Of a stretch of DNA of 64,000 nt, positions 3,001-63,345 are shown one piece after another. Origin of the DNA: Terriglobia bacterium (lineage in GTDB: Bacteria > Acidobacteriota > Terriglobia > 20CM-2-55-15). Made by a program: the position numbers and the translations under genes. The notes under the pieces are model-generated. The model had not been told where the DNA came from. It did not search any database and saw only the letters and a program-made list of their open reading frames with translations. The stretch is taken from contig CBDAOY010000007.1 in the NCBI GenBank assembly GCA_965198225.1, forward strand, positions 990,045 through 1,054,044, read 5' to 3'. The first letter of the stretch is position 1. Each line of letters opens with the position of its first letter.

Positions 3001-3161
3001 CCAACGTCTTGGGCTGGTTCCGTTGCTTGGCAGCGGTGCGAAGATCGAGAACCGGCTGGAGAATCGGGGTAGACCCGTCCAAACTGTGGGGTGAAATGCG
3101 GAGCACAGGACCGACCGTCAATGAATCAACTCTGTTATCAGCAGCTTACAGCTACGGGAAG

Positions 3162-3248
3162 CGGAGAGGGTGGGATTCGAACCCACGGTGGAGTCACCCC
3201 CACACCGGTTTTCGAGACCGGCCTGTTCAACCGCTCCAGCACCTCTCC
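3162..3248 (-). tRNA. tRNA-Ser (anticodon CGA), type II with long variable arm
   Basis: Reverse complement gives GGAGAGG acceptor stem pairing CCTCTCC, anticodon loop CUCGAAA, long variable arm, T-loop GGTTCGAATCC, discriminator G. Confidence 0.85.
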
Positions 3249-45915: not shown

Positions 45916-46746
45916 GCCGCGGCCGCCCCCGAATTGCCGCTGGATTTCGTCACGAGCGAGGAGACCATCATCGTTTCGATCGAGCCGGTCGAACGTCTCG
46001 CCGTCGCCCGTCCACTCTTCCCGTGAGATTGTACCGTCCTCGTTCGTGTCCATGACGCCCATACCGCCCGCAGTCCCGGGCCTCTGCCCCGGCCGAGGGC
46101 GCATACCACGCATGCCGCGGCCGCGACGCTGTCCCTGTTCCTGTCCGTAGGCGGTGATCTCCCCTCTGAGAGCGACCTCGAGCGCTGCCCTGGCTTCGGG
46201 GACATCGAACCCGGCCGGCCCGGGGCGTCCCTTGAAGGCGATGGTGCCGTCGGAGCCCACGACATAGATCCGGTCGGGAAACGCGGCGTACGCATTCGCC
46301 GTCCGGTCGTCGATCTTGTCCAGAATGGTCGGCATCGAGATGTCCAAGGCGGTCGTACAGATGTTGGCTGCTTCCTGGCGCTGCTCGTCGGTTTTGGCTT
46401 GTTCGATCAGGATGCCGTCGATAACATTCGCCGCTCCGAGGTTGCCGTCGGTGGGATGCGCTTCTCGAATGTAGACGAAGAAGAAATTGGCGCGGTCCTT
46501 GTAAGCCTGGTACCAGTTTTCGATGTCCACGACATCGCGGCGGAACGGGCCTCAGGTATAGCTGGCGAAGATCAGCGCGGTCGGTCTGCCCGTCATCTCA
46601 GAAAGCGTAATCTTTTGCTTTCCGTCTTTTGTACTGAGCGTGAAATCAGGCGCCGTATCTCCAGGCGTGGGGCCGCCGCCTCGCCGCTGGGCCGTGGCAG
46701 GGCTCACCAGGACGAGGACCAATAACGCAGACGCGAATGTTCTCAT
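45589..46746 (-). CDS. Candidate selenoprotein: secreted deiodinase-like thioredoxin-fold domain (FASYT-U-GPF, VYIREAHPTDG) fused to six EF-hand Ca-binding motifs; in-frame TGA (Sec) at 46552-46554
   Basis: ORFs 46552..46788 and 45589..46530 are in the same frame separated only by TGA; hairpin CGATGTC-GTG-GACATCG 16 nt after TGA (bSECIS-like); GGAGGAG RBS before ATG 46746; deiodinase motif AHP.DG downstream. Confidence 0.6.
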
Positions 46747-46845
46747 GGGTTTACTCCTCCGTCGACTATAGACAGGGCGGAGCGGCACGGGTTTAAGAGC
46801 GTTTTCAAATCGAATGAGGACCGCGTCCAGCGGTACGAGCTAGCT

Positions 46846-46965
46846 TCAGCCCCCTCCGCCAAGGAGGAAGCCTCCTGCGGCGCCGCGCGCTGTTCCCGAC
46901 GCCAGGTCTCCCAGGAGCAGACCGCCTATTGCGCCGACAACGGCAAACACCGCGATCGTGCCCAT
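46846..46965 (-). CDS. Possible small Gly-zipper membrane peptide (39 aa)
   Basis: MGTIAVFAVVGAIGGLLLGDLASGTARGAAGGFLLGGGG; weak RBS. Confidence 0.25.
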   Translation of the reverse strand: MGTIAVFAVVGAIGGLLLGDLASGTARGAAGGFLLGGGG

Positions 46966-47152
46966 CTTGGCTGCTGCGGACTTCTTAGCGCAGCTTTGTT
47001 CTTCGTTCTCTGTCACGAAAGAGCCTCAGTTTCCCCGTTCAGTCGATGATACCGGTGTTGTAACGGGATTTCTTCAAAAAAGCCGGGGTCTGCCGGGGCG
47101 TCGCCCGGATGCGGTAACATTAGGCTGACTTGAGTGTGATGGAGGCAGGTTC

Positions 47153-47431
47153 ATGAAAGCAATATGGCAGGGCGCGGTCTTGGCCGAAAGCGAAGATACC
47201 ATCGTCGTGGAAGGGAACCACTACTTCCCACCGGAGTCGACCGACACCTCCCACTTTCGGCAGAGCCGGACCCACACGGTCTGCCCGTGGAAAGGACAGG
47301 CCAGCTACTACGACATCGTCGTCGACGGCGACACCAATAAGGACGCCGCCTGGTTCTACCCCGAGACGAAGGAAGCCGCCGACCAGATTCGCGGTTATGT
47401 CGCGTTCTGGCACGGAGTCGAAATCACCTAA
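47153..47431 (+). CDS. DUF427-domain protein
   Basis: 92 aa; NHYFP, C.WKG.A.YY, GYVAFW; GGAGG RBS; terminator hairpin GGGGGCAGAGCCCCC downstream. Confidence 0.7.
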   Translation: MKAIWQGAVLAESEDTIVVEGNHYFPPESTDTSHFRQSRTHTVCPWKGQASYYDIVVDGDTNKDAAWFYPETKEAADQIRGYVAFWHGVEIT

Positions 47432-47443
47432 AACGGGGGCAGA

Positions 47444-47470
47444 GCCCCCATTTCCCTCTTTCGTTCTCAA
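47444..47470 (+). terminator. Intrinsic terminator GGGGGC-AGA-GCCCCC + T-rich tract
   Basis: Directly after DUF427 stop. Confidence 0.55.
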
Positions 47471-47539
47471 CTTATTTCTGTTTTGGGCAGCGTCCGACGA
47501 CGCTTCAAAACGATCTTGAGCTTGACAGAAAGCCACCCT

Positions 47540-47555
47540 ATGTAGAAATCTACAT
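47540..47555. promoter_or_regulatory. PadR-type operator ATGT-N8-ACAT (ATGTAGAAATCTACAT) overlapping padR promoter; TTGACA at ~47521
   Basis: Perfect 7-2-7 palindrome matching known PadR box spacing, 4 nt upstream of padR ATG. Confidence 0.5.
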
Positions 47556-47558
47556 TCG

Positions 47559-47864
47559 ATGCCTCGAAACTACATGACATATCCGTCCGGTCTGGTCCTG
47601 CAGGCAATCGCTTCGGGGCATCGGTATGGTTTCGATGTGATGGATGTGACGGGATTGCCGAGTGGTACGGTTTACCCGGCACTTCGGAAGCTGGAACGAG
47701 AGGGCTATGTCCGTTCCAGGTGGGAAGGCGAAGATGTGGCCCGCCAGGCAGGGCGTCCACCGCGGCGTTACTACGAGGTTAGCGGCCCTGGCTCGGCGGC
47801 CTTGACCCAGCTGCTGAAACGGTTTCCAGGACTGGCCCGGGCCCTTGCCGCGGAGGTCTTGTGA
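47559..47864 (+). CDS. PadR-family transcriptional regulator
   Basis: 101 aa; wHTH PadR signature Y.....G...YP.L..LE..G. Confidence 0.85.
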   Translation: MPRNYMTYPSGLVLQAIASGHRYGFDVMDVTGLPSGTVYPALRKLEREGYVRSRWEGEDVARQAGRPPRRYYEVSGPGSAALTQLLKRFPGLARALAAEVL

Positions 47865-48475
47865 GGTGGGCAGGCGGCGAGCGGTCTCTCCGCGTCTGCC
47901 TGTTGTGGATTCGCGCTCTGTCGTTCCTCGTCCCGCCCCCGGGCCGGGACGAATGGATGCGGGAGTGGCGTGGCGAGCTTCTGCATCACTGGAGTGAGTT
48001 CGAGACAGGAGTTCAAAAGTCCCGTGCTGCAAGATTCGATTTGTTCCTACATTCGATGGGCGCCTTGCCTGATGCACTGTGTCTGCTGCGTCAGGAGTGG
48101 AGACTGGACATGCTGATGCAGGATCTGACCTATGCGGTACGGACGCTCGGCGCTCGACCGGGCTTCACCTTCGTAGTGATTTTCATTCTGGCGCTGGGTA
48201 TCGGGGCCAACACCGTCGTGTTCAGCGTCGTCGATGCCGTCCTGTTTCGACCCCTACCGTTTCCCGAGCCGGAGAGGCTGGTTGCGATCTGGGACGAAAA
48301 CACCCAAAAGTCGATGCTTCGTCAGGGTCCGGCGCCCGGCAATCTGCTGGACTGGCGTGACCAGTCACGGGTGTTCGATGGTATCGGAGCCTGGTACGCG
48401 GGCGAGCCCAGGACTGTGCGCGACGAGTCCAGTGCGGAGAAAGTGTCCGCCACTATAGGATTTTATTATGTCTAA
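47861..48475 (+). pseudogene. ADOP/MacB-like FtsX permease, N-terminal 204 aa only, truncated by insertion of integrative element
   Basis: Permease-prefix domain then first TM (FTFVVIFILALGIGANTVVFSV) and start of periplasmic domain; reading frame runs into AT-rich foreign DNA at ~48457 and stops. Confidence 0.7.
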
Positions 48476-48516
48476 TAATATCCATAAGTCTTATTTATAT
48501 CAACAGTATATCGTCC

Positions 48517-48544
48517 TAGACAATCCAGCGCCGTCTGGTATAAT
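48517..48544 (+). promoter_or_regulatory. Integrase promoter: -35 TAGACA, 16-bp spacer, extended -10 TGgTATAAT
   Basis: Canonical spacing, ~70 bp upstream of int ATG. Confidence 0.5.
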
Positions 48545-48613
48545 CCAAGCCTGTTGGGGGATATATTGGGGGAGTGCTGGAGTGCCTCTGCCCCATCGGT
48601 CGAGGGCTCTGCA

Positions 48614-49792
48614 ATGGCCATTCACAAACTCTCCCAACGCAAGGTAGACACCGCCGGTCCCGGCAAATACGAAGACGGCGGCGGGCTCCGCTTGGTGGTG
48701 TCCAATTCAGGCGCCAGGAGATGGGTCCTGCGTTACACCGTCCACGGCAAACGCCGGGAAATGGGTCTGGGCCGTTATCCCGATGTCGGGTTGGCCGATG
48801 CCCGCACGCAAGCGCTACGGCACCGGAGGCAGTTGGCGACGGGCGTAGATCCCATCGCAGCCCGCCGGGCGGCCCCGGAGACGCTACCCACCTTCACCAT
48901 CTGCGCCGCCCGGTATATCCGGGCCCATCGACGGAGTTGGCACAATGCCAAGCACGCGCGGCAATGGGTCCGGAGCCTGAAGACCTATGCCCGGCCCGTC
49001 ATCGGGGCCAAACGGGTCGACGCCATTGAGACTGAAGACATTGTAAAGATACTCTCTTCGATCTGGAACACCAAGACCGAAACGGCCAAGCGCGTGCAGG
49101 GGCGCATCGAAAATGTCCTGGACTTCGCCGCCGCGCACCAATACTGCGGTCCCCTGAACCCGGCCCGCTGGCGGGGCCATCTGGACAAGTTGCTCCCGAA
49201 GCCCTCCCGGGTGAAGCAAGTCACCCACCACCCGGCCATGCCGTATCCCGAGGTGGCGGACTTCCTGCAGGAGCTGTCCGGACACCGGAGTGTATCGGCG
49301 CAGGCGCTGCGGTTTTTGATCCTGACCGCCACGCGCACCAGTGAAGTCTTAGAGGCGCAGTGGCCGGAAATCGATCGGACCGCCGGTATATGGATCCTTC
49401 CCGCCTCCCGGATGAAAGCCCGACGGGAACATCGAGTTCCCTTATCGGATGCGACCCTGGCGGTTCTGGAAGACCTACCCCGCATGGCAGGCCACCCGTA
49501 TGTCTTCGCCGGATCTCGCCACGGACGCCCTCTGTCGAACATGGCCCTACTGAAATTGATGCGAGACATGGGATATTGCGTTGAGGGTTCCCGGGCTCAC
49601 TACGTGCCGCATGGATTTCGCTCCAGTTTTCGGGATTGGTCCGGCGAGGTGTCGAGCTTCCCGCGAGAAGTTGCGGAAATGGCCTTGGCCCACGTGGTGG
49701 AGAACAAGGTGGAAGCGGCCTACCGGCGGGGGGATCTGTTCGCCAAACGGCGCAGCATGATGCAGGCCTGGGCCGACTACCTCAAGAAGTAG
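48614..49792 (+). CDS. int: Tyrosine integrase, P4-type (DUF4102 arm-binding N-domain + catalytic domain)
   Basis: MAIHKLSQRKVDTAGPGKYEDGGGLRLVV...; catalytic R..H..R..Y region (HGFRSSFRDW, conserved Y near C-term). Confidence 0.9.
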   Translation: MAIHKLSQRKVDTAGPGKYEDGGGLRLVVSNSGARRWVLRYTVHGKRREMGLGRYPDVGLADARTQALRHRRQLATGVDPIAARRAAPETLPTFTICAARYIRAHRRSWHNAKHARQWVRSLKTYARPVIGAKRVDAIETEDIVKILSSIWNTKTETAKRVQGRIENVLDFAAAHQYCGPLNPARWRGHLDKLLPKPSRVKQVTHHPAMPYPEVADFLQELSGHRSVSAQALRFLILTATRTSEVLEAQWPEIDRTAGIWILPASRMKARREHRVPLSDATLAVLEDLPRMAGHPYVFAGSRHGRPLSNMALLKLMRDMGYCVEGSRAHYVPHGFRSSFRDWSGEVSSFPREVAEMALAHVVENKVEAAYRRGDLFAKRRSMMQAWADYLKK

Positions 49793-50066
49793 AAGGGCGG
49801 GTGCGCAAGGTCGACGGGCGGCCAACAATTCATGCATTCCGATGATTCCTTGAAGGAGCCCACTGCTTCCGAGGTGTGAAAGAATTCAGGCTGGTGCGGA
49901 TTCGACGCGGAAGTGGTCGGCGGAGTGAAAGGAGATGCGACAGAATCTGAGGATCTACGATTCCCGACCGAACCCCAGTGGGGCTAGTGTAGGCCGTCAC
50001 CAAAGGGCACCGCGGACTCGGTCGATGTGACTTTGATCAGGGAAAATCATGGACGGAACGGGTCCC

Positions 50067-50708
50067 TCAATGGATCGTCGGCTTCTCCACGCCGATGGTG
50101 GACAGTGCGTGTTGGCGGGCTCGCGTGCAGGCAACCACAACGGCATGAAGCTCTTTCTCCGCGATCCGTGAGAGTTCCCGCACGTTCTTGAGGCTCCGCG
50201 CCAGATCCATCTCCGAGCGCGACGATGTTCTCTCCAGACACTCCACCATGCTGTGCATCATGGCGTTGATCTCCCCGAGATTGTCCATGGCTTCGTGAGC
50301 CCGTTCGGGGAGATCCAGCACCTCCTCGGCACCGAACAGGCCGTCGATGAAACCTTCCAGCTCTTCCATGCGGGTGCGGCAGAGGCGACTCAGATCATCG
50401 AGCTCCGCCTTGGCGGCCATCGGTGTCAAACGGAACGGCCGGGTTCCCGATTGATGCTTTGCCAATTCGTTCCAGAGGCCCATGAGAGCCTCAAACAGCT
50501 CGTTGGCGGCAGCGACATCGTCAAACTTCGGCAGTTCTCCTCCCCAGAAAGCTGCTACGGTCGGGAGGGGCGACGCATCAAGATTGGGACTGGCGATGTT
50601 GCCGAGGAAGCGTGTGCGCACGACATGGAATGGAGTCGGACAGGCATAACCGTCCAATAGCCCGCGGACTCGTTCGTCGCCCTGATATCTGTGGGAACGT
50701 TTCTTCAT
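50067..50708 (-). CDS. Hypothetical protein (213 aa)
   Basis: ORF with reasonable composition; no recognised domain. Confidence 0.45.
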   Translation of the reverse strand: MKKRSHRYQGDERVRGLLDGYACPTPFHVVRTRFLGNIASPNLDASPLPTVAAFWGGELPKFDDVAAANELFEALMGLWNELAKHQSGTRPFRLTPMAAKAELDDLSRLCRTRMEELEGFIDGLFGAEEVLDLPERAHEAMDNLGEINAMMHSMVECLERTSSRSEMDLARSLKNVRELSRIAEKELHAVVVACTRARQHALSTIGVEKPTIH

Positions 50709-50795
50709 GCCCGATTAACTTCCGGCCGGCGTTGTGCCATTTCACCTTGTCCCTGCGGAAGCAGATTAGTCCGAAGAAGTTCGAGAATTTCCCGT

Positions 50796-51380
50796 TTACG
50801 TCCCACAGTTCTGGTAGTCCGAGGCCATACACGTGCGCGCCCACTCAATGGCGCGGCTGATCTGGGCACGGGTCATTTCACGTTCAAGGTTGCCCCGCGA
50901 CTCCTCGGGCCCAACGCCGGCGACGCTGACCCTCCCATTGGCGCTGGCGATATTGAACCACATGTGCGCGAGCACGTCGTCCTCGATGCCGCCCAAGCCG
51001 TTGTAGTACATCAACCCGAGGTTGAACTGCGCGCTCGCGTGCCCCTGCTCGGCCGCCATGCGGTACCATCGCGCCGCTTCCGCATCGTCTTCGATGACAC
51101 CCTCGCCGTGGGCATACATGGTTCCGAGATTGAATTGCGCACGCGCGTCCCCCTGCTCGGCCGCTATGCGGAACCACCGCATTGCTTCACGGTCATCCTC
51201 CATGGCGGCCTCGTCATCGTCGTAGGTGCTCCCGAGGCTGTCCGGCGTATCCGCGTTCCCCTGCTCGTCTTCGGCCTGAAAGCGTCCTGGTTCGTCCTGC
51301 GCCGGAACACATGCCGCGGCCAGCAGCCAGGAGCCGCAGAGCAGTGTCATCGCGATCCATCGGTTACGGTGTTTCTTCAC
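50796..51380 (-). CDS. Sel1-repeat (TPR-like) secreted protein
   Basis: Signal peptide; repeated A.AQFNLG.MY..G.GV..D...A..W motifs. Confidence 0.8.
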   Translation of the reverse strand: MKKHRNRWIAMTLLCGSWLLAAACVPAQDEPGRFQAEDEQGNADTPDSLGSTYDDDEAAMEDDREAMRWFRIAAEQGDARAQFNLGTMYAHGEGVIEDDAEAARWYRMAAEQGHASAQFNLGLMYYNGLGGIEDDVLAHMWFNIASANGRVSVAGVGPEESRGNLEREMTRAQISRAIEWARTCMASDYQNCGT

Positions 51381-51620
51381 GGCAGCCTCCCATGTCCTGG
51401 TGATCTTATGCCTTGAGACTGGATCGTCGATTGTAGGCGATCCAGGACGCGACCCTACAAGTACTTGGCGACTCTAGTGTAATGGGATCCGCAGGTTACG
51501 TTGCGTGCCGAACACGGATCACCGCTGGAGTGTGGACACAGCGGAAGGTTCACCGTGCCGACGGACGGGTAAGCCAGCCACCTTGAGCAGGATCATCTTG
51601 GGACGCCATCGGCGGCACAC

Positions 51621-51951
51621 CTAACGTCGGCGGCCGCAGGACACGAATATCTCCACGTCGGCCCTCAGCGCGCGCTCCGTGTTGTGGCTGAAGGCACCCC
51701 GGGCCGCTTTGAAGTAGGCGGCCAGTTGGTCCCCTGCCTCCGCAGCGTATTCAACACGGAACGAGAGCGTTCTCGAGCGGGTTGGTCTGCCCGATCGCCT
51801 TGTGCAGCGTGGCGATGCTGGAGACGTAGCGGCGCACCGTCGCCGGGGCCTTGACGCGCGCCATGTCGTCGATGAAGGCGACCAGGGTGGGGGCGTTGGC
51901 GGGCAACGCCGGCACGACCTGCTGCCGGCAGCCAGGATCTCCATCTCGCAT
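51621..51951 (-). pseudogene. Tyrosine recombinase N-terminal (SAM-like core-binding) fragments, frameshifted remnant
   Basis: VAFIDDMARVKAPATVRRYVSSIATLH in one frame and FSHNTERALRADVEIFVSCG in the other; no catalytic domain. Confidence 0.45.
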
Positions 51952-52008
51952 GTCATCTCTGAAATCAGCATCGGGCGGCCTCCGGTTCAGTCGAAAAAGG
52001 CCGCGAAT

Positions 52009-52042
52009 TTTACTCGCGATAATTCCAGTTATCGCGAGTAAA
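52009..52042. promoter_or_regulatory. Perfect 14-6-14 palindrome TTTACTCGCGATAA-TTCCAG-TTATCGCGAGTAAA (recombinase core-site-like)
   Basis: Perfect arms, 6-bp spacer, ~60 bp from the recombinase fragment. Confidence 0.5.
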
Positions 52043-52611
52043 GCCCCGAGATAACGCTTTCCTCGCCGTTGATCACACGGCGCGGCGGATTTTTTTCGAT
52101 CCGGCGCCTGCTGCCCATCAGCTCAGGGGGGGCGGGACGCAACGAGGTCTGTCTACCGAACGGGGGAGTTGTGGTGCCTTCTACGGCCCGAATGAGCGCG
52201 ACCAGATATCGCCAGCGAACCGGAGAAAGGGACATCGACTTGGCAGAACACCGTGAAATCGCGGCGTCACGCGTCACAGGGATAGACACGAAAGCGGTGG
52301 CGAAGGACTGAGGTGGCCGTATCGATACGGTCGTGGCGGCGCGCTCACCCGCAGCCGTGGCTGCGCCGATGATTTGTCCATGGGGCGATCCGCCGCGTGA
52401 CCGCAAGCCGCTGGCGATGAGTGCCTGCCCGGTTCACGGAAATCGGGCTATGGGCTCTGCCGTGCAGCGCCGCCCGCCTGTTCCGTGCCGAGCCCGTTGG
52501 CAGGACATGAGCAGTTTCGCCGCCGATACCGTCGATCAACGTGCGACCGTCATCACCGGTCCCCGGGTGTCGGTCCGCGGACGTCAATTCACAAGGGCGA
52601 CGCGCTACCGC

Positions 52612-55600
52612 ATGCGCGTGCTCTCTTTTTCGCTGCAAGGCCTTAAAACCGGGTTATTTCTGCTATTCGCATCACTGCTGGCCGTGTCGGCGCCGATTCA
52701 GGCCAGCGCGCAGGCGAACAGCCCTCCGGCGGTGACGGGGCCAACCAGCGTCGACTACGCCGAGAACAGCGAGGAGACGGTGGCCACGTATATCGCTACG
52801 GACCCGGAGGCCGAAGCAATCGCGTGGAGCGTGTCCGGGACGGACCATGCGCTGTTTTCCATCACTGCGGGTGTCCTGGAGTTCCTGAGCCCGCCGAACT
52901 ACGAGAGGCCTATCGACGAGGGCGAAGACAACGCGTATGAGGTGGGCGTCACGGCCACGGATTCCTCCGGGGCGGCCGCCACCGTTGCGGTCACCGTGAC
53001 GGTAACAGACGTCAACGACCCGAACATCGTCCTCATCATGGCGGACGATGTCGGTTATGAGGCCTTTGGGGCATACGGTAGCGCACAGTACAGAACGCCG
53101 CGAATTGATGAGCTTGCAGCCGCGGGAGTTCGCTTCACGAACGCTTACTCAAACCCGGTATGCACCCCGAGCAGAGTTGCCTTGATGACGGGTAAGAGCA
53201 GTGTCAGGAACTATGTGGATTTCGGAGTTCTACTCCCCGGAGAATACACGATTACTGATCTCTTTAGTGGGGCCGGATACGCAACGGCCATCGCCGGAAA
53301 GTGGCAGCTTCACGGTAGTGTCGTAGGTAGTGACGTAGTGGCTGGTGTCCCTGCCGGAACCGGATTCGACACGTATTCCTTGTGGAATACAGCCAACACG
53401 GGTCGTAGTCGCTACTGGAATCCTTCCATCGAACGCGACGGTGAAATCATCGATCTGGGCAGCGAGGATTACGGGCCCGACATATTCACGAATTTCCTGC
53501 TGGAATTCATAGAGTCCAACAGAGATAAACCGTTTTTCGCCTACTACCCGATGGTGCTTCCTCATGATCCGTTCGGCTCGCCGCCGCAAGCCCAATGCGT
53601 CGATACCGCTGACGGACAGTGCAATTTCGAGGACATGGTCGCGTATCTCGATTACAACGTCGGCCGCATACGCGACAAGCTGGCGGACCTGGAGCTACTC
53701 GACAACACAATCCTCATATTCACCTCCGACAACGGAACTCACGCACGCTGATCTGATTTCAGAACTCGGGGGAGAAATGATCCATGGGGATAAGAACATG
53801 CCCAACAATGGCGGCACGCGGGTACCGCTGATAGTCAGCGTTCCAGGAGGTGAGGGGGGACGGGTGTTCGACGACCTGATCGACTTCACCGACTTTCTCC
53901 CGACTCTGGCTGATGCGGCAGGTCTTACGATTCCTGACGTCAATATGCTGGACGGCGTGAGTTTTTGGGACAGGCTTCAAGGCCGAACCGGCCAACCGCG
54001 GGAATGGATATATACCTATTACTTCCCACGTCCGTTCGCCGATAGGTTCGACAATCCGCAACGTCATCCAGAGGCGTCGTATGTCCGAGACAAGCGGTAC
54101 CAGCTCTACGGAACAGGAGAGTTCTTCGACATTTCCGTAGACCCTCACCAAGTGCATCCGTTGCCGAGTGACGATGAAGAGTCCAGCGCCGCCCGTACCA
54201 AGCTGCAAGCGGTTCTCGACTCGATGCCGGGGAGAGGTGAGGAGATTTACCCATATTTGATAGGAACTGTCCCGGACTCTGAGCCGCGCCCGCGATGGCG
54301 GCCCGTCCTGTCGAAAGCAACTGTGAACGGCGGCCAATTGACGCTCACTTACGCCGGAATTCTGGACTCAAGAGAAGCGCCTCCCGCAGATTCCTTCATT
54401 GTGAACGTTGATGGTTCCGAGCGTGCGGTCTCCACAGTTTCGATAAGCAAAACAGCGGTTACGCTTACACTCGCTTCGGCGGTTACAGTTGGCCAGACGG
54501 TGACGTTGAATTACACGCCGGGAACGAATGCGATTCAGCACGCGAACAGGCCATTCGGGCACAAAGCGGCACCCCTGGTTCGCCAAGGGGTGACGAACAA
54601 CACTGTGGACACGACGGCGCCGGCGGTGTTGTCGATCACGAGCGACGCGACGCACCCGACGAAGAACGCTTTCACGGTGACGATAACCTTTTCGGAGGAG
54701 GTGAGGGGACTCACGGCGGGGGAGATCGCGGTCACCAATGGCACGGGCTCGAACTTTGCGGGCACAGGCGCGAGCTACATGCTCGACATCGAACCCAGCG
54801 ACGATATCGAAGCCGACGTGACGGTCCGGGTTCCGGCCGATGCGGCGATGGACGCCGCGAACCTCGGCAACATCGAGGGGATCGAGACCTTCGCGGTGGA
54901 CACCCAGGCGCCGGCGGTGTTGTCGATCACGAGCGACGCGACACACCCGACGAAGGATGCTTTCAGGGTGACGATCACCTTTTCGGAGGCGGTGACGGAG
55001 CTCACGTCGCAGGATATCGCGGTCATGAACGGAGTGGGCTCGAACTTCGCGGGCACGGACGCGCGCTACACGCTCGACATCGAGCCCAGCGCCAATACCG
55101 AAGACGATGTGACGGTCCGGGTTCGGGCCAACGCGGCGGTGGACGGCGTGAACATCGGCAACGTCGAGGGGATCGAAACCTTTGCGGTGGACACCCAGGT
55201 GCCGAGGGTGTTGTCGATCACAAGCGACGCGGCGCACCCGACGAAGGATACTTTCACGGTAACGATCACCTTTTCGGAAGAGGTGACGGGGCTGACGGCG
55301 AGTGAGATCGTGGTCAGCAATGGCCGTGGCTCGAACTTCGCGGGCACGGGCGCACGCTACACGCTCGACATCGCTCCGAACGCCAACCTTGAAGCCGATG
55401 TGACGGTCCGGGTTCGAGCCAACGCGGCGGTGGACGGCGCGAACAACAGCCACGTCGACGAGGGCGAGACCTTCGCTGTGGACACGCGGGCACCGGTGTT
55501 GATGAGCGCTGCGGTGGATGGCGACACGCTGACGCTGAGCTATGGGGAGGCGCTGGGCAACCCGACACCGGAGCCGGGCGATTTCACGATGAATGTGGAG

Positions 55601-58600
55601 AGCGCTGGGCGGAGCGTTTCCAGGGTGGCGGTGAGCGGAAGAGCGGTGACTTTGACGCTTGCCTCGGCCGTGGCGCATGGCGAGACGGTGAGAGTGAGCT
55701 ACAGCCCGGGGACGAACCCGATCCAGGACGCGGTGGGCAACCAGGCTCTGGGACTGAGCAACGCGTCGGCCACCAACACTACGGATGCACCCAACACGGA
55801 TCCGATGATCACGAGTCCGGGGCCGTTCAATGTCACTGAGAATCAAGCGCGGGTGACCCGGCTGATGGCGGCCGACGCCGACCCGGGGGACGAGGTCACC
55901 GGCTATACGCTTGTCGGCGGAGCCGATCGGGCCCAGTTCACGGTCGGTGAGGATACCGGAGATCTGGGCTTCCGGGCGGTTCCGAACTTTGAAGCGCCCA
56001 CGGATGCCTTCAGTAACGATCCGCCAAGTGGGGCAGGAGACAACGAGTACATCGTGGTGGTCCAGGTCAGCAGCGGGGCAGGAACGCGGGTGCGGACGGC
56101 GGAACAGACGATTCGCGTGCGGGTGAGTGACGTGGAGGAGCTTCCAGCGGCGCCGGAGGAGCCGACTTTTCCGAGGGCGACGCCGGACAGCCTGACGGTG
56201 GCGTGGACGGAGCCGGACAACACCGGGCCGCCCATCACCGGCTATGACGTGCAATACCGGGAAGGCGTCAGCGGCGGCTTCACGGATGCGCCGCACTCCG
56301 GGACGGCCCAAACCACAACGCTCATGGGGTTGAGCGAGGGCACGGCCTACCAGGTGCAGGTGCGGGCGAGGAACGCGGAAGGAACAGGTGACTGGTCGGA
56401 GCCGGGCGAAGGACGGACCGTGGCCCCGCTGAGGGTTCGGATGACGCCGGAGCTGGAGCCGCCGGTGGAGGGCCCGTTCTCGGTGAGGTTCAGCTTTTCG
56501 GAGACGGTGACGGGTTTCAGCGGAAGCGACATCGAGACGGGTCAGGACCTTGCCTGCATGGACGATCAGAACAACCCGGTGTTCTGCAACCCCGGCTTTG
56601 CGGCATTCGAGACCACGGATAGCCGGGTCTTCACCACCCGCGTGACCCCGAGGACCGGCGGGGTGGCCAATAACTACAAGCTCACGCTCACGGTGCGTGC
56701 CGGCGGAGTGAGATCGTCTGTCGGCAATAAGCCTAACGAGGAGGCGACGCTTGAGGTGCCGGTGGCGCCGCCGGGGGTGACGGTGCCGATCGGGCCGCTG
56801 GGGCTGACGGCGAGCGGGGGAAACGGCCAGGTGGCGCTCCGGTGGAATGCCCCGGGGGACACCGGGGGCGCCGCGATGGTCCGCTACGAATACCGGGTGG
56901 CGGATGGCGTCGGCGGGGAGTTCGGCGCCTGGATGCGGGTGGATGCGGCGGCGAGGTCCGCGCCGGTCCCCGATCTGACGAACGGCCGGGAATACGTCTT
57001 CGAGCTGAGGGGGGTGAACGCCCTGGGCTACGGCGGGGTGGAGACCGTGCGAGCCACCCCGGTGCGCACCACCACCGGGGACGGAGGAGGCAGAGGAGGC
57101 GGCGGGGGTGGGGGCGCCCTCCGCGGGACAGTGCCGGGCGCGCCGACGAACCTGACGGCTGAGGGCGGGGACGGCCAGGTCGTACTGAGTTGGGACGCCC
57201 CGGAAAGCGACGGCGGGGCGGCGATCACCGATTACGAGTATTGGAACGGCGGGAGTCGGACCTGGACCTCCATCGGTTCCACGAACACCACCCATACGGT
57301 CACCGGCCTCGACAACGGAACGGAATACACCTTCCAGGTGCGGGCGGTCAACCGAAGGGGCCGGAGCCGGGCTTCCAACCGGGCTACGGCGACGCCGGAC
57401 GTGTTTATCCTGGACTTTGCGCATTTCGCCAATGGCGCGTCCATTACCTCCGATCTGGTGCTGGTGAACCCGGGAAGCATCCCGATCCGGCCCGTCGTTT
57501 ATTTCTACGACACCGGGGGCAATCCAATTAACGCCGAATCGGTGGTGGACGTCACCGGTGATCTGACGGTCGCCGAGGACGGTGCCTTGACGGTCCTGGC
57601 GGATATGGAGCCACTCAGAGAACTCACGATTGCGACCCACGGTCGGGGAGCGCTCGTGAGTGGATCGGTGAAGGTTGTCTCTTACGGTCCTGTCGGCGGG
57701 TTCCTGCGCTATAACGTCCCGGATGTCGGCGTGGCCGGTGTGGGAGCGAGCCCGCCCACACGGGATGTCCTTTTCCCGGCCCGCCGCGAGGCGGGAGGCA
57801 TCAATACGGCGGCGGCGATCCAGAACCTGGGAGAGGCACCGCTGGAGGTGAGCTGCCGATTGATGCGCGCGGGCGCGGTGCTGGAAGAGGCGGAGATCGC
57901 TCTTGCGCCCAACGGGCAGTCGAGTGTCTTTATCGACGAACAATTCCCCGCCACCGATACGTCCGACTTCGCGGGGTCGATGCACTGCGACGCCCCAGCG
58001 ACGTTCACCGGTGTGGCGGTCGAGATGGATGCTGTCCACCGCATCTTTACGGCACTGCCGGTGGTTTCCGCGGATCGGCTCAGCGGCGGCAGTGCGACGG
58101 TCCTGGACTTTGCGCATTTCGCCAATGGAGGTTCCATCACCTCCGATCTGGTGTTCGTGAATCTGAAGACCCGTCCGAGCGGGCCCGCGCCCACTCCCTT
58201 TCAGATGGCCATCCCTCCGAGCCGCCCTGCCATCCATTTCTACGACACGGAGGGCAATCCGATGGCGACCGAATCGGTGGTGGACATCACCGGCGATCTG
58301 GAAGTCACCGAAGACGGCGCCCTGACGGTCCGGACGGAGATGGAGCCCTTGGGCGTGCTCACGATTTCGACTCACAGCCGGGGCGATCTGGTGACCGGAT
58401 CGGTGAAGGTGGTCTCGGAGGGTCCCATCGGCGGGATGCTCCGCTTTGACCTCCCCGGCATCGGCGAGGCCGTGGTGGGGGCCAGCGAGCCCCTCAGCGA
58501 CTTCCTCTTCCCGGTGCGCCGCCAGGAGGGAGGCATCAACACGGGGGTCGCGATCCACAACCTGGAATCGAGTCCGGAGTTGGTGCGCTGCGAACTGCTG

Positions 58601-58837
58601 CGCGAGGGCGTGCTGCTCGATACCGTGAGCATCCCTCTTGAGGCCAACGGGCAGACCTCCGGGTTCATCGACGGGCGATTCCCCAGCGTCGATACGTCCG
58701 ACTTCGTGGGGTTGGTACGCTGCAATGCAGTCGGTGAGGGGCTCTTCAGTGCCGTCGCCCTGGAACTGGATGCCGCCAACCGCATCTTTACCACACTGCC
58801 AGTGATCCCGCTGCAAGAGACGATGTCTCAGGAATAG
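52612..58837 (+). CDS. Giant secreted multidomain protein: signal peptide, cadherin-like, arylsulfatase (CTPSR FGly motif), SwmB repeat, 3x tandem Ig-like, cadherin-like, 3x Fn3, two ~230-aa C-terminal repeats; one frameshift near 53745
   Basis: Sulfatase frame ends FTSDNGTHAR* at 53751 while +1 frame continues ADLISELGGEMIHGDKNMPNNGGTRVPLIVSVPGG (sulfatase C-half) into the 1757-aa ORF 53564..58837. Confidence 0.65.
54605..55477 (+). repeat. Three tandem 291-bp coding repeats (97-aa Ig-like units VDTTAPAVLSITSDATHPTK..), high nucleotide identity
   Basis: GTGGAC register at 54605, 54896, 55187, 55478. Confidence 0.8.
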
Positions 58838-59125
58838 ACGGACGCGCCTGACAGGCTAGGCGACGGCGTCGCCATGAGCTTCGAACCGGGCGTCGACGCC
58901 CAACGCGGGAGAGCCCGAGTCAGGGGGGCACGGACCACGGCATGCCTGGACGGTTCACGGCGCGCCGGCGGTAGACATCCGATCCGTGGACACCGTGGGC
59001 CGGGGGCGCCCCCGGATGCATACCGGAGGCCGGCGGGGGTCCATCATGCCTGGGATGACTGTGATGTCGATGTTGCCGTGCTCGGTCGCGTGCCTCGTCG
59101 CAGCCGGCATCCGCGGTGTTGCGGA

Positions 59126-59803
59126 ATGGCTCCACGCGTTGAGGCTCGACGACAGCTCGCGCTGGCTGGGCCCATCCTCCGAAAACCTCTGCTATCCGTA
59201 TCGCGAAAGGCGCTGGCCTCCGGCGAGCCGGAAGATCCCCCCGGCTGGGAACGGATCTATGAAGGCTCGTTCCTGGAAGCAGCGCTGGTCACACAGCTTT
59301 CCGGCGACTTTCCCGGCCCGGTGCTGGCCGTGGTTTCGGTGCCCTTTTACTCGGCAGACCGGCAGCGGATTTTAGTCCCGCGAGGGGCGCGAGTCGTGGG
59401 CACGGCTCAGGCCGTGGCGAATCAGGACCAATCGCGCCTTGCCGTCAGTTTCCACCGTTTGATCTATCCGGACGGGCGTTGGGTGTCGCTGGAATTCAAC
59501 GGCCTCAATCAGGTCGGCGAGGGAGCCTTGAAAGATCAGGTCAACCGCCATTACCTATCCACGTTCGCCGCAGTCGGCGCGGTCGGCATCCTGAGCGGGC
59601 TGACCTTGCGCGGCTCCAATCCCTATGGCGGCGGGCAGCAGAGCCTTCAGGCTGGGGCCGGACAAGGGCTCGGCCAGGCCGCGACGCGCATCCTGGATCG
59701 TTTCCTGAATCGTTTGCCCACCCTCACCATTCGGGCCGGGCATCGGCTTCGCGTTTGGTTCACTTCCGACGTGCTGGTTCCCCGGCCCCAACAAGGAGAT
59801 TGA
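59126..59803 (+). pseudogene. trbI: TrbI/VirB10 C-terminal domain fragment (5'-truncated, no TM/Pro-rich region)
   Basis: FLEAALVTQLSGDFPGPVLAVVSVPFYS...ILVPRGARVVG...RLAVSFHRLIYPDGRWVSL matches VirB10 C-domain; upstream frame is Arg-rich noise. Confidence 0.5.
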
Positions 59804-59804
59804 A

Positions 59805-60722
59805 ATGAAAATGTACCGAAAAGCCTTCACCGTTGTTGTCATGGTTCCGATCCTCATCATGCTCACCACCACGCCCGCGCATGCCCTCTTCGGCTCGATC
59901 CTTGCGGGCATCCAACGCGCCCAGATGATCGCCAATCAGGGGATCCAGATCTACAAGGACACAATGGCGAAGATCACCCTGGACGGCCAATTGACCCAGA
60001 TGACGGATCAGTTCAACCACCTGCAAGAACAGGCGCTCGGAAGTGTCGGGGCGCTCACCGATCCGTTTACGCAGTTGGCTTCGGTGCCGACGCAGTTCAT
60101 CGGCGTGGGTCTCGCGTGGAAGAACGATTTTACCGGCGTTGCCGCGGAGCTTGTCTCGTCGGTGGAACAGATGGGCGAAACCGGCACGAGCTTTACCGAG
60201 TCGTGGCGTGATCGGCTCACCGCCGCCGACACGGTGACTGAGAGCGACATCATTGGTCTGTACAACTCTCAGCGGCCCGAAATGGCCCAGAGAGCGGCAC
60301 GGGGCTACCTTGCGGCGCGAGAGGAAGGCGAGAAACGCCTGGTCCTCGATCACGCCACGAGCGATGCGGCGGCGAATCTCATGATTGCGGCGCGTGAGGC
60401 TGTGGCCTCCTACGAAGGACTGCGAAACAACACCAATACTTCCAACACCGCGCTCGCTCAATCGCAGGTGGCCGGGACCCTGACCCAGGGGAACCTCACC
60501 GCGGCCATGGCGCAGTTGATGGCGTTCGATACAGCAAAGGCGGCAGCGGAAGATTACGAACGCGAGATCGCCCGGCGCGACGCGCTGGCGGAATGGGTCG
60601 AGGCCCAGCGCCGCGCGCGCGTCACCTTCGACGCGCAACAGGCCGGGCTCGATGCCCGGCGCGATGCGATGCGGGAAGGGTTGCTCTTCCAGATTCATCC
60701 GTTCTATCGCGGCGGGAACTAA
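59805..60722 (+). CDS. trbJ: Conjugal transfer protein TrbJ (VirB5-like)
   Basis: 305 aa; signal peptide, coiled-coil; operon with trbL. Confidence 0.75.
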   Translation: MKMYRKAFTVVVMVPILIMLTTTPAHALFGSILAGIQRAQMIANQGIQIYKDTMAKITLDGQLTQMTDQFNHLQEQALGSVGALTDPFTQLASVPTQFIGVGLAWKNDFTGVAAELVSSVEQMGETGTSFTESWRDRLTAADTVTESDIIGLYNSQRPEMAQRAARGYLAAREEGEKRLVLDHATSDAAANLMIAAREAVASYEGLRNNTNTSNTALAQSQVAGTLTQGNLTAAMAQLMAFDTAKAAAEDYEREIARRDALAEWVEAQRRARVTFDAQQAGLDARRDAMREGLLFQIHPFYRGGN

Positions 60723-60734
60723 CCCGGTACGCCG

Positions 60735-61736
60735 ATGCAAATCCAACTCGACCCGGCGATCCCGGCCCAGGTCCCCCCGGAGCAGCTTCGGGATTTCAAG
60801 TCGTTTCTCGATACCGTTCTCGAGGGAATCATCGGCCCGGCGGCCAACCCTCTGCTGGAGACCGGAAACCTGCTGTGGACAGGGTTAGCCGCAATCGTGG
60901 TGGTGTTGACCGGCGCGAAGATCGCGTACAGCGGGAACATTCAGCCGTGGGACATCGTCCGGCTCGTCATCGGTCTGTGGGTGCCGTGGGTCATGTTGCA
61001 GTTCTACTCGACGCCCATCCCGGGGCTGGTCTTCACGTTCCCGGGGGTCATCACGGCGGGCGGGAATTGGTTGCACAATTTCTTGCTTGCGGACACGGCC
61101 TGGTCCATGCATAGCGAACTCGGAAACCTCGTCACCAACCTCGCGGAGGATCTTCAGGTGCAAGCGAATCAGGGGAGTATTCTCGGCGTGCTCACCGGCG
61201 GCGCTCACGCCGTGCTGACGCTCGTTGCCGGAGCCGTCATCATGCTGTTCGTCGTGACCTGTCTCGTCGTTTTGTTCGCGGTTACCTACGCTCAGGTGAT
61301 CTGGGCCCAGATCGCCCTGGCGATCCTCACGCTCCTGGGTCCGATCTTCATTCCCTGGCTGGTGTTTGAGCCGATGAGCTTCATGTTCTGGGGATGGTTC
61401 CGGGCGATGCTGACGTATTCGCTCTACGCCGTGATCGCCGGGGCCGTCATGCGCGTGTTTTCCGGCGTGGGCCTCGCCTACGTCACGACCCTGGGCACCG
61501 CCCAACTCAACTGGCAGTCCATTGGCGATCTCGGTTTGTGGCTCCTGGCGGTCCTGCCCCTGTTCGTGGCCGGGATCCTGTCATCGCTCAAGTGCGGGGA
61601 GCTCGCCTCGATGCTCGTCACCGGTGCCGGTGCATCGGGAAGCGGGCTCATGGGCATGGCGGGGATGGCGGGAACGGTTGCCACCGGCGCCAGCGTGCGC
61701 GCGGCCGCGAAAGCGGGGGCGGGAGGTCTGAAATGA
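60735..61736 (+). CDS. trbL: Conjugal transfer protein TrbL (VirB6-like)
   Basis: 333 aa; polytopic membrane protein with Gly/Ala-rich tail. Confidence 0.75.
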   Translation: MQIQLDPAIPAQVPPEQLRDFKSFLDTVLEGIIGPAANPLLETGNLLWTGLAAIVVVLTGAKIAYSGNIQPWDIVRLVIGLWVPWVMLQFYSTPIPGLVFTFPGVITAGGNWLHNFLLADTAWSMHSELGNLVTNLAEDLQVQANQGSILGVLTGGAHAVLTLVAGAVIMLFVVTCLVVLFAVTYAQVIWAQIALAILTLLGPIFIPWLVFEPMSFMFWGWFRAMLTYSLYAVIAGAVMRVFSGVGLAYVTTLGTAQLNWQSIGDLGLWLLAVLPLFVAGILSSLKCGELASMLVTGAGASGSGLMGMAGMAGTVATGASVRAAAKAGAGGLK

Positions 61737-62404
61737 GCAAGAAGGAAACCCAAGACGCCGGGGTCGAATACGCCGAAATCTGGGGCGAGGCCATCCACGC
61801 GAACCACCACCTGCGGGTGCTCTCTGTCGGGCTGGGGGCGTTGTGCCTGTTGCTCGTCATCGTCGTCATCCGCATCGTGTCGGTCGCTCCCCCGCGCCCC
61901 ATCGTCGTGCGGGTGGATGAAGTCGGCCGCGCCGAGGCCGTCGCCTATGAAGCGATGGAGGCCCAGGCGGACCCCCTCGACCCCACCACCAAATACTTTC
62001 TCAATCGCTTTATCTATGACTTCTACTCCCGGCGGCGGGCCACGGTCGAAGAGAACTGGTCCCGGAGTCTGCGCTTCCTAACGACGGAACTTGCCGGTGC
62101 CTCGTTCCGGGCCGAGAGCCAGAACATCGCCCTTCTCGCGGCGGGCGCGGCGCGGGATGAACTGCAAGTGGATCGCGTCGTTTTGCGGATTCAAGCCAAC
62201 CCCCGGGAGCCCCACAGCGCGACGGCCGATTTCGATCTGGTGCGGCTGGTGGCGCAGAACGAAGTGGGCCGGGAACGCTGGACCCTCTCGCTTCAATTTC
62301 TGTTCCTCGATGAGATCCCGCCGGACCTGATCGTCCACAACCCGATGGGGATCGTGATCACCTATCTGCAAGGAGATCGGGCGATAGTCAGCGGCGAACC
62401 ATGA
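61733..62404 (+). CDS. trbF: Conjugal transfer protein TrbF (VirB8-like)
   Basis: MSKKETQDAGVEYAEIWGEA...single TM then periplasmic domain; ATGA overlap with trbL; ORF-track upstream extension is spurious. Confidence 0.75.
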   Translation: MSKKETQDAGVEYAEIWGEAIHANHHLRVLSVGLGALCLLLVIVVIRIVSVAPPRPIVVRVDEVGRAEAVAYEAMEAQADPLDPTTKYFLNRFIYDFYSRRRATVEENWSRSLRFLTTELAGASFRAESQNIALLAAGAARDELQVDRVVLRIQANPREPHSATADFDLVRLVAQNEVGRERWTLSLQFLFLDEIPPDLIVHNPMGIVITYLQGDRAIVSGEP

Positions 62405-63345
62405 TGATCGAGCATTTGCGGGGGAGGGAGCAAAAACTGGAACCGCTCGGTTGGACAGGGCGCGATGCGGAATGGATCGCGCTGGTGTGTTTGCATAGTG
62501 GCGTTTTCACCCGCGCACAATTCTGTTTCTACTTTGATACCCGCCGCGACCGCGCCCATCGGTTTGTACAGGCATTGGTGAAGCGGAGGTCGGCGGTCGA
62601 AACCGATGCCCTCACCTTCAATGGAGGAGGGAAGACGTGCCGGATATCGAGCAAACCGATCTACCGGGCGCTGGGGGTCGAGAACATCCGCCACCGCCGA
62701 AAAGCCCAACCGCCGGTGGTGATGCGGCGGCTCCTATCGCTGGATTTCGTTCTGGAACATCCGGGCATGAACTGGCTTCCCGCCGAGATGGAAAAGGTCG
62801 AGTTTTTTGACGGGCTCGGCCTCTCGCGGCGGTTGATTCCCCGCCGGATTTATTACGGGGCCGTGGGGGCCCAGAAACGCTACTTTGCGCTCAAACTTCC
62901 CCTTGCCGTGGACGCTCGAACCGTCACCTTCGCCTACGTCGATCCGGGGCACAGTACCGCTTCGGAATTGCACTCCTGGGGAGCCGCGCATGGGCCGCTT
63001 TGGGATGCGCTGCGGAAGACGGGGCGGCAGGTCCGGGTGATCGCCATTGCCGCCGAAAACAAGACGGTCGAGCGGGCGGAGCGGGTGTTGCGCGCATGGG
63101 CGGCGGCGGTCCCAGGGGAGCCCAGCGAGGAGCTGACGGTGAAGCGGGAAATCAAGGCGATTGACGAAGCGATGACCCACAAAGACCGGGAATTTCTGGC
63201 CCGGTACGGGGGATTCGGTGGAGCCATGAAACGGTCCGCGGCGCTCCAAAGTCTGCCCGAAGCGAAGGTGACGGAAGGGGTCTCGATTGACGACTACGGG
63301 ACGTGGTTTGCGGAGCGTTTTGCCGGTCCCGAAGGAATACTGTAA
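62401..63345 (+). CDS. Hypothetical protein (314 aa), possibly wHTH replication/relaxation-type
   Basis: Overlaps trbF stop (ATGA); no confident domain call. Confidence 0.45.
   Translation: MMIEHLRGREQKLEPLGWTGRDAEWIALVCLHSGVFTRAQFCFYFDTRRDRAHRFVQALVKRRSAVETDALTFNGGGKTCRISSKPIYRALGVENIRHRRKAQPPVVMRRLLSLDFVLEHPGMNWLPAEMEKVEFFDGLGLSRRLIPRRIYYGAVGAQKRYFALKLPLAVDARTVTFAYVDPGHSTASELHSWGAAHGPLWDALRKTGRQVRVIAIAAENKTVERAERVLRAWAAAVPGEPSEELTVKREIKAIDEAMTHKDREFLARYGGFGGAMKRSAALQSLPEAKVTEGVSIDDYGTWFAERFAGPEGIL

Follow-up and report, generated by a model that had tools for sequence, protein, structure and literature searches.

A tail-family surface-sulfatase gene, probably killed by a 4-bp tandem duplication, in a decaying conjugative element of an acidobacterium that is probably sponge-associated

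How should a sulfatase be read when its catalytic domain starts in one reading frame and ends in another? The question is raised by positions 52612-58837 (+ strand) of a 64,000-nucleotide stretch of contig CBDAOY010000007.1 (the whole stretch is termed the window), where a signal peptide and the N-terminal half of a sulfatase lie in one frame, while the C-terminal half, a long stalk of adhesin-like domains and a conserved C-terminal tail lie in another. The locus could represent (i) one gene broken by mutation, (ii) two independent genes, (iii) an intact gene obscured by a sequencing or assembly artefact or (iv) a gene read through by programmed frameshifting. The reading favoured here, with a probability of about 0.8, is that of one 2,073-codon surface-sulfatase gene of a tail-bearing protein family, recently killed by a real 4-bp duplication; the conjugative element that carries it is itself in decay, and the bacterium is probably a sponge-associated acidobacterium.

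Open reading frames (ORFs), Pfam matches and orthologues together identify 52612-58837 as a single ancestral gene of 2,073 codons. Frame A (ORF 52333..53751, +) encodes, from 52612, the signal peptide, a cadherin-like domain and the sulfatase N-half, and it closes with FTSDNGTHAR and a stop, as an earlier note made from the sequence alone had described. The N-half (53020..53745, +) matches PF00884 (E=3.6e-39) and PDB entry 6prm (E=1.9e-41) and includes the motifs ADDVG (53041), CTPSR (the formylglycine motif, intact at 53161-53175), GKWQL (53296) and SDNG (53725); the PF00884 match spans only profile positions 1-244 of 301. Frame B (ORF 53564..58837, +, in the +1 frame; 1,757 codons, reading ..THADLISELGGEMIHGDKNMPNNGGTRVPLIV) starts with the sulfatase C-half (53750..54295, +), which has an SGSH_C subdomain (PF16347, E=9e-9) and the catalytic-Lys motif HGDK at 53783, so the earlier claim that the sulfatase continues in the +1 frame is also borne out. 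The motif set of an S1 sulfatase (CTPSR, ADDVG, SDNG and HGDK) is present in full, with HGDK in the other frame. The C-half is 72% identical to that of the closest orthologue (locus L002), in which it is contiguous with the N-half, and all aligned orthologues run uninterrupted in one frame through the site (P0001, P0003-P0007, P0009, P0011-P0013 and P0124, the last from L002). Two independent genes are rejected, as the break falls inside the catalytic domain and the orthologues are contiguous.

The DNA at the break reads ACT CAC GCA CGC TGA; the lesion (53739..53751, +) is composed of a perfect CACG-CACG tandem with a further C (53739-53747) and a premature TGA (53749-53751), with a net shift of +1. 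The spacing from DNG to G(D/G/E)K is 15 residues in 9/9 aligned orthologues (P0001, P0003-P0007, P0009, P0011 and P0124). Removal of one CACG restores THADLISELGG (THADLISELGGEMIH) with exactly 15 residues from DNG to GDK, whereas removal of one base leaves 16. The DNA of L002 at this site reads ACT CAC CAC GAA CTG GTT, with the extra 4 nt absent. The most parsimonious account of the aligned sequences is thus a 4-bp tandem duplication (CACG to CACGCACG, 53739-53747), in which the 9-mer CACGCACGC replaces an unduplicated CACGC allele; this is preferred because of the CACG-CACG tandem and because its reversal restores the spacing of the orthologues. A single-base insertion is rejected, since its reversal leaves one residue more than in any orthologue. 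The earlier proposal of one frameshift event that splits one gene therefore stands, while its single-base nature does not.

The break lies between the metal-binding SDNG and the catalytic-Lys HGDK; thus, neither product can be an active sulfatase. The exported fragment is without half of the active site, and the 1,695-codon remainder is without a signal peptide. Since the catalytic domain is not contiguous (PF00884 in one frame, SGSH_C in the +1 frame), the locus is classed as a sulfatase pseudogene and not as a sulfatase, and the gene is dead in this genome.

The earlier note had left the choice between a sequencing error and a recent inactivation, and comparison of assemblies resolves it in favour of the latter. 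Four gene calls, each from a different assembly, make up the 90% identity cluster of the N-half protein. One of these (L001; ENA ERZ25072076) is an independent assembly from a different strain and sample that matches window positions 46606-63248 at 99.4%, with 98 single-nucleotide polymorphisms (SNPs) and 6 gaps over 16.6 kb; it has the identical lesion, and its 6.2-kb gene differs from that of the window by only 2 SNPs, both nonsynonymous (M963L and S1400G). Another (L003; ERZ25069191, a 2.78-Mb contig at 18x coverage) has the left flank in common with the window and a gene damaged upstream of the CACG site, with a Leu-to-Pro change (53261), a +TT frameshift in a T-run (53532) and loss of homology at 53622, next to which are transposase genes. 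As random error cannot put the same 4 nt into two diverged haplotypes, the lesion is judged from these alignments to be real. The inactivation also appears recent, because frame B is still open for 1,695 codons past the shift, with no further stop or lesion in 5.1 kb, and because dN/dS relative to L002 is alike in the two halves of the sulfatase (0.25 for the N-half and 0.235 for the C-half).

The alternative that the frameshift is an artefact, and the gene intact and working in the organism, gains some credit from the source of the data, which are metagenome assemblies: the 2x-coverage L001 contig has indels that split its integrase, the orthologues of L002 and of locus L076 are split as well (that of L002 near a Gly/Pro-rich run), and the frame downstream of the lesion is perfectly open. 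It is nonetheless improbable given that the same 4-nt insertion occurs in two assemblies of different samples that are 98 SNPs apart and that a third assembly is independently damaged in the same gene; moreover, a tetranucleotide tandem duplication outside a homopolymer is untypical of read errors. Another alternative is that translation joins the two ORFs by programmed +1 frameshifting of the prfB kind at CGC-UGA, or that they form a deliberate two-part system; a +1 shift at the in-frame UGA would indeed yield THAR-DLISELGG and a full-length protein. By contrast with prfB-type genes, which are marked by a slippery codon, a Shine-Dalgarno-like element and a conserved shift, the site here (CGC-TGA-T) has no slippery P-site codon and no upstream Shine-Dalgarno-like stimulator, its product would exceed every orthologue by one residue, the break sits between active-site motifs, and the arrangement occurs in no orthologue, all of which are single-frame. 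This mechanism is, therefore, regarded as highly improbable, more so than an artefact, and the duplication in a single gene is retained as the explanation of the two frames.

The domain order of the ancestral protein can be followed from its probable start, the ATG at 52612, where the n-h-c pattern of a signal peptide begins; gene callers picked ATGs further upstream (P0002 and P0122). The Sec-type signal peptide (52612..52710, +), read from the translation as MRVLSFSLQGLKTGLFLLFASLLAVSAPIQASA/QA, is followed by cadherin-like domain 1 (52717..53016, +), which ends in a TDVNDP motif and has a weak Big_9 match in Pfam; homologues with the same module have PF00028 or PF17963. Beyond the sulfatase, frame B encodes a SWM repeat (PF13753; 54296..54604, +), three tandem Big_12 Ig-like domains (PF19078 x3, E=2.5e-39; 54605..55477, +), a second PF13753 stretch (55478..55792, +) and cadherin domain 2 (PF00028, E=8.1e-7, 29.8 bits against a cut-off of 28.8; 55793..56143, +). 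A region with three fn3 domains (PF00041 x3; 56144..57397, +) includes fn3-1, an Ig-like domain without assignment (56423-56794), fn3-2 (from 56795), a Gly-rich linker (57068-57139) and fn3-3 (from 57140). The gene ends in two tandem C-terminal repeats of about 230 residues, each starting with DFAHFANG (57398-58096 and 58097-58834; 57398..58837 with the stop, +). The earlier description of the stalk held for the three Ig-like, the second cadherin and the three Fn3 domains; it had only one SwmB repeat where Pfam finds two, and it termed the 291-bp Ig-like repeats near-identical, while Tandem Repeats Finder gives 84% matches at that period. Its view of the 4.4-kb antisense ORF (54368..58816, -; 1,482 codons) as an artefact was sound: the GC content by codon position (0.81/0.52/0.64) mirrors that of the sense strand (sense GC3 0.78), and no NCBIfam model matches the ORF, which is a shadow and not a gene. 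The whole gene has no match in a plasmid database by megablast, and the three possible C-half proteins have no exact match in the protein collection searched; no encoding contig is on record for the window's own N-half protein, P0002.

The sulfatase head is related to well-characterized enzymes. Its best PDB matches are the exo-4S-kappa-carrageenan S1 sulfatase 6prm, human ARSA and the S1_16 kappa-carrageenan sulfatase 9fo1, with which it has in common the PF00884 and SGSH_C fold and the four motifs. It differs from these in its setting, a 2,073-aa surface protein in which a cadherin-like domain comes before it and a long stalk after it, and in that this copy is split by the frameshift and inactive. 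The domain is about 63% identical to many stand-alone metagenomic sulfatases of about 445 aa, of which the few with source names are from Bryobacterales and Rhodothermaceae metagenome-assembled genomes (MAGs). The combination of cadherin, sulfatase and SWM domains recurs in at least 12 longer homologues of 640 to more than 1,700 aa with varied continuations, including Big_12/SWM stalks, a 2,024-aa SWM/Calx-beta continuation in a chromosomal context (L076) and S-layer homology (SLH) repeats (P0007, locus L075). P0007 is a 60% identical homologue that has SLH repeats in place of the DFAHFANG tail, and P0124 (L002) unites the head and a SWM/cadherin/fn3 stalk of comparable kind within one 1,718-aa ORF. 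A sulfatase fused to a stalk, which the earlier note took, on a mobile element, to be uncommon, is thus not rare in this kind of community. The SLH-tailed variant, by analogy, supports the reading of a cell-surface-tethered enzyme, and the intact protein was probably a Sec-exported, multidomain cell-surface sulfatase on an adhesin-like stalk.

Two of these loci have features of their own. In L002 (4283-13467), a tail-like domain is fused 5' of the cadherin-sulfatase head, and the gene is split into 3-4 overlapping ORFs, with one break in a Pro/Gly-rich run; it adjoins a group II intron reverse transcriptase and a DDE transposase. In L075 (1-8907; ERZ25071132, a 1.08-Mb contig of a different organism), the gene of the 968-aa cadherin-sulfatase-SWM-SLH homologue is preceded, at a distance of about 3.3 kb that includes three ORFs, by that of a 1,783-aa arylsulfotransferase-cadherin-Big_9-SLH protein, and several toxin-antitoxin pairs lie around the two.

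In an intact protein, the stalk and tail would hold the enzyme on or near the cell surface, the head would remove the sulfate esters of glycans in the host matrix, and the cadherin, Ig and fn3 modules would mediate attachment. The Cys of CTPSR would require a formylglycine-generating enzyme (FGE) encoded elsewhere in the genome: Pfam and NCBIfam scans of the 64-kb window, where an adjacent maturation gene had been a point to check, find neither an FGE nor an anaerobic sulfatase-maturating enzyme (anSME) gene, and the sole radical-SAM/SPASM protein of the window (42624-45077) has no anSME model among its 25 best NCBIfam matches. An FGE-sulfatase family gene (PF03781) is present in L003 (18226-18960, -), about 7 kb past the point at which L003 and the window diverge, beside DUF1501 and PSCyt2/PSD1 genes. 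The lineage, thus, has a candidate formylglycine-generating enzyme.

The tail links the locus to a much larger set of proteins. The last ~480 residues, the two repeats, are real repeats as first described (self-match 57%) and match no Pfam or NCBIfam model, so that the domain search assigns Big_12, SWM, cadherin and fn3 in the stalk and leaves the C-terminal repeats without a model. A word-indexed search found 1,150 homologous proteins, with 52-83% identity among the matches listed, and a profile search of 1.84 billion representatives gave 2,363 matches (1,388 at E<=1e-10), in proteins of 600-4,667 aa that nearly all have the tail as their very last part. A genome scan located 174 relatives in 71 loci, all in MAGs of Acidobacteriota (Terriglobia, Bryobacterales, Ca. 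Versatilivorator and Versatilivoraceae), among them MAGs with names from sponge studies (APA_bin, RHO3_bin and COS4_bin). Several copies occur per genome, with at least 9 loci from one genome, and the 97 genes collected are mostly intact ORFs, most often 1,000-1,400 aa long, with a maximum of 3,290 aa. A Gly-rich linker (GGGGGGG) and one fn3 domain are conserved ahead of the repeats in the family consensus, whereas the passenger varies; Pfam matches on 53 passenger regions include fn3 (46), LRR (17), PPDK_N (9), cadherin (8), cadherin-like (6), SWM (5) and Calx-beta (4). The window protein belongs to this family, with linker, fn3 and two repeats at 57068-58837 that match the consensus and the end ..FTTLPV..E before the stop, and, like several other members, it has an N-terminal signal peptide. 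By these searches, the tail defines what appears to be a large new surface-protein family of the Acidobacteriota with at least 2,363 clusters. Genes of the family are often in tandem, two to three on the same strand (three in 10.7 kb at L004 1-10735; also L018, L016, L028-L030, L041, L065 and L067).

AlphaFold models the double repeat with confidence (pLDDT 90, pTM 0.87) as an all-beta structure of four beta-sandwiches, two per repeat. Foldseek searches of the PDB with this model return weak matches to arrays of macroglobulin domains (C3c, TEP1 and alpha-2-macroglobulin; E ~1e-5, TM-score <0.2) and to TM1070. The tail is, on this model, a conserved beta-sandwich module, for which position, constancy and the SLH analogy suggest a role in surface display or anchoring. 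The combination of a variable passenger with a conserved C-terminal module is shared with SLH-anchored enzymes, cargo of the type IX secretion system (T9SS) with its C-terminal domain, and autotransporters. The tail differs from these types in its two tandem repeats of about 230 aa, its four modelled beta-sandwiches and its lack of a Pfam or NCBIfam model; it is without the terminal aromatic residue of a barrel, without a PEP-CTERM or LPXTG-like end, and without the size or lineage of T9SS domains. Likewise, the two PF13753 SWM_repeat copies are a likeness to SwmB, the giant motility protein of marine Synechococcus, from which the window protein differs in organism group, size and architecture, as here two SWM repeats stand among more than 15 domains and the relatives are Acidobacteriota. 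Domain content and relatives give no evidence for a motility role, and the protein is not placed among SwmB-type proteins.

The gene lies on what appears to be the remnant of an integrative conjugative element (ICE). On the left, a 204-aa ORF (47861-48475) is a truncated ADOP permease fragment that matches only positions 1-111 of the 803-position ADOP model, is preceded by a PadR gene and ends 79 bp before a tyrosine integrase (Arm-DNA-bind_3, Phage_int_M and Phage_integrase domains; 48554..49792, +). The ADOP gene was probably the insertion site, and its truncation is taken to mark the left end of the element, whose right end lies past position 64000. A 213-aa ORF and a Sel1-repeat gene are also found upstream of the sulfatase gene. 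On the right, genes of a type IV secretion system (T4SS) follow: a truncated trbI/virB10 remnant (58874..59803, +), which starts 37 bp past the stop of the sulfatase gene on the same strand, orfX1 (59805-60722, +), trbL/virB6 (60735-61736, +), virB8/trbF-like (61733-62404, +) and orfX2 (62401-63345, +), a set identified with Pfam and NCBIfam and syntenic with L004 and related loci. The trbI ORF is homologous to the full-length 462-aa TrbI only from 59224 (residue 119) onward, and in its initial 118 codons, which are rich in Arg, no transmembrane segment is seen.

Related loci have the order tail-family gene, a gap of 1.4-2.3 kb, ArdC-like, ORF, TrbC/VirB2, VirB4 (807 aa), CagX/VirB9, TrbI (462 aa), orfX1 and TrbL. 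Among the T4SS-module proteins of L004 tested against the window by tblastn, matches are confined to orfX1 and the part of TrbI that starts at residue 119, while ArdC, VirB2, VirB4 and VirB9 have no match anywhere in the 64 kb. Relative to these elements, the window cluster appears to have lost about 8.4 kb (ardC, virB2, virB4, virB9 and the 5' part of trbI). An ICE combines an integrase, present here, with a complete mating-pair-formation T4SS (VirB2, B4, B6, B8, B9 and B10), which is incomplete here; since T4SS genes are missing, the element is a remnant and not a functional ICE. The gene is, as first proposed, carried between an integrase and T4SS genes, on an element that is itself degraded. 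Among the SNPs that separate L001 from the window, about 70 of the 98 cluster at 59374-60665 (the 3' part of trbI and orfX1) and another ~18 at 62862-63237, with the 16.6-kb alignment nearly identical elsewhere; these clusters look like recombination tracts from another copy of the element.

The position next to the T4SS is typical of the family. Within 10 kb of a tail-family gene, 24 of the 71 loci have an ardC homologue and 17 of the 71 have virB4; in at least 13 of the 71, the tail-family gene directly precedes the ardC-T4SS module in the same orientation, at a distance of 1.4-2.3 kb. T4SS versions that are only ~50% identical show this linkage too. The window gene thereby appears to occupy the usual place of its family in an ICE, just upstream of the ardC-T4SS module. 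Copies of the element, up to four per contig, agree at 93-95% identity over the stretch that begins in the fn3-tail part of the gene and continues through the T4SS, and they differ in the passenger, which can be LRR, cadherin-like with 7 fn3, PPDK_N, or Spondin_N with arylsulfotransferase, SWM and cadherin. An element that ends inside the gene is not favoured as the cause of this tail-only sharing, as L014, L024 and L059 also have 98-99% identical upstream sequence, the 5' end of the gene included. In one further locus, L010 (2837-10738; Bryobacterales MAG CBDCHL010000005.1), the gene immediately before a full ardC-T4SS cluster encodes a tail-family protein of 2,633 aa that combines Spondin_N with an arylsulfotransferase-like domain, and the same slot thus has a second sulfate-ester enzyme. 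The stalk of this protein is the most similar to that of the window protein (58-63% amino-acid identity).

Such linkage, kept across divergent T4SS versions and with the passenger exchanged between otherwise near-identical elements, could also mean that these proteins act primarily in conjugation, as variable mating-pair or aggregation adhesins or T4SS-associated surface factors for which a sulfatase is one interchangeable head. PrgB, the aggregation substance of pCF10, is a large multidomain surface protein encoded beside T4SS genes on a transferable element. The window protein has no sequence relation to PrgB, and it differs further in that the passenger varies and includes enzymes and that the element has lost virB2, virB4 and virB9. 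Most tail-family loci have no T4SS genes within 10 kb, cadherin-sulfatase-SWM proteins also occur in chromosomal or SLH-tailed form with no T4SS in flanks of 6-10 kb, and the passengers (LRR, cadherin, fn3 and sulfate-ester enzymes) are of classes reported for host interaction in sponge symbionts (PMC8163846). A primary role in conjugation is, therefore, thought unlikely, though less so than either an artefact or programmed frameshifting, and a surface sulfatase that acts on the host remains the preferred reading of the intact protein.

A wider and distinctly tentative proposal, which is given less than even odds, is that the linker, fn3 and two-repeat tail form an undescribed surface-display or secretion module, which defines a family of host-interaction proteins with over 2,000 clusters in Acidobacteriota that are probably sponge symbionts; that conjugative elements carry one such gene in a fixed slot upstream of ardC and the T4SS; and that the conserved 5' and 3' ends of the gene serve as homology arms to swap passenger cassettes (LRR, cadherin, fn3 arrays, sulfatase, arylsulfotransferase and PPDK_N). 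If true, the elements would be vehicles that shuffle and spread symbiosis factors, or that use them as variable mating adhesins, and the window would be one such cassette caught in decay.

The bacterium that carries the element is probably a sponge-associated acidobacterium. Arylsulfatase A is among the most enriched clusters of orthologous groups in sponge symbionts, and action on sulfated matrix polysaccharides is proposed (Slaby et al. 2017, PMC5649159). Sponge MAGs, those of Acidobacteriota among them, show enrichment and lateral transfer of genes for cadherin, fn3 and eukaryotic-like repeats (Robbins et al. 2021, PMC8163846), and ICE machinery is proposed as a driver of horizontal transfer in sponge symbionts (PMC12659273). 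The window protein is like this guild of adhesion proteins and arylsulfatases (PMC8163846, PMC5649159) in its domain classes (cadherin, fn3 and, in the family, LRR) and in the presumed attachment and use of sulfated glycans; it differs in the fusion of enzyme and adhesion modules, the common tail and the fixed T4SS-adjacent position. In the literature searched, no account was found of the fused enzyme-stalk-tail architecture, the tail family or the fixed T4SS linkage, and none on 'Versatilivorator'.

Several points weigh against parts of this interpretation. The lesion is known from assemblies and not from the underlying reads, and the L001 contig that confirms it has 2x coverage and several indels of its own. 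An ATG at 53780 with GGGGGAG just 5' could permit translation of a cytoplasmic C-terminal fragment. In the head, the usual GKWHLG reads GKWQLHG, with the catalytic His replaced by Q here and in the close homologues examined, and the chemistry may differ in detail. For the tail, Foldseek against the PDB gives no functional assignment, and surface anchoring is deduced solely from position and conservation. The T4SS deletion is judged against paralogous elements of ~80% identity and not against an intact copy, and the missing T4SS genes could lie beyond position 64000. The sponge origin and acidobacterial assignment are likewise drawn from the relatives, the ADOP permease fragment and the Bryobacterales-like sulfatase matches.

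The frameshifted locus is best annotated as one gene and not as two. As a pseudogene it is ordinary, and its interest is in the wider pattern of a tethered sulfate-ester enzyme, an undescribed tail and a link to conjugative elements. The recurrence of a sulfate-ester enzyme tethered to an adhesin stalk provides a testable model for the attachment of symbionts to, and feeding on, the sulfated matrix of the host. The conserved tail, without a Pfam or NCBIfam model, marks a multicopy surface-protein family of Acidobacteriota that are probably sponge-associated, and its repeated link to the T4SS provides a means by which 'eukaryotic-like' adhesion genes could spread laterally, hitherto deduced only statistically.

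The rest of the window is ordinary chromosome, with genes for peptidases, an oligopeptide-binding protein, efflux and a sigma-54 two-component system. A 325-bp segment (45328-45652), inside an EF-hand/deiodinase-like ORF (45255-46295, -), is present in the window and absent from L003; it is bounded on both sides by the same CGAAGGCCTCAGTCGG, which indicates a tandem-duplication or copy-number polymorphism between strains. The radical-SAM/SPASM protein at 42624-45077 (-) is an 817-aa fusion to an ArsM-like arsenite methyltransferase that matches ArsM models, including those of the arsenosugar and arsinothricin types, all below cut-offs, and it may be a fused organoarsenical-biosynthesis enzyme. 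A second large putative surface protein is encoded at 3403-8004 (-), a 1,533-aa ORF with DUF7948 and SBBP beta-propeller repeats and without the DFAHFANG tail, which adjoins a tRNA-Ser(CGA) gene at 3161-3248.

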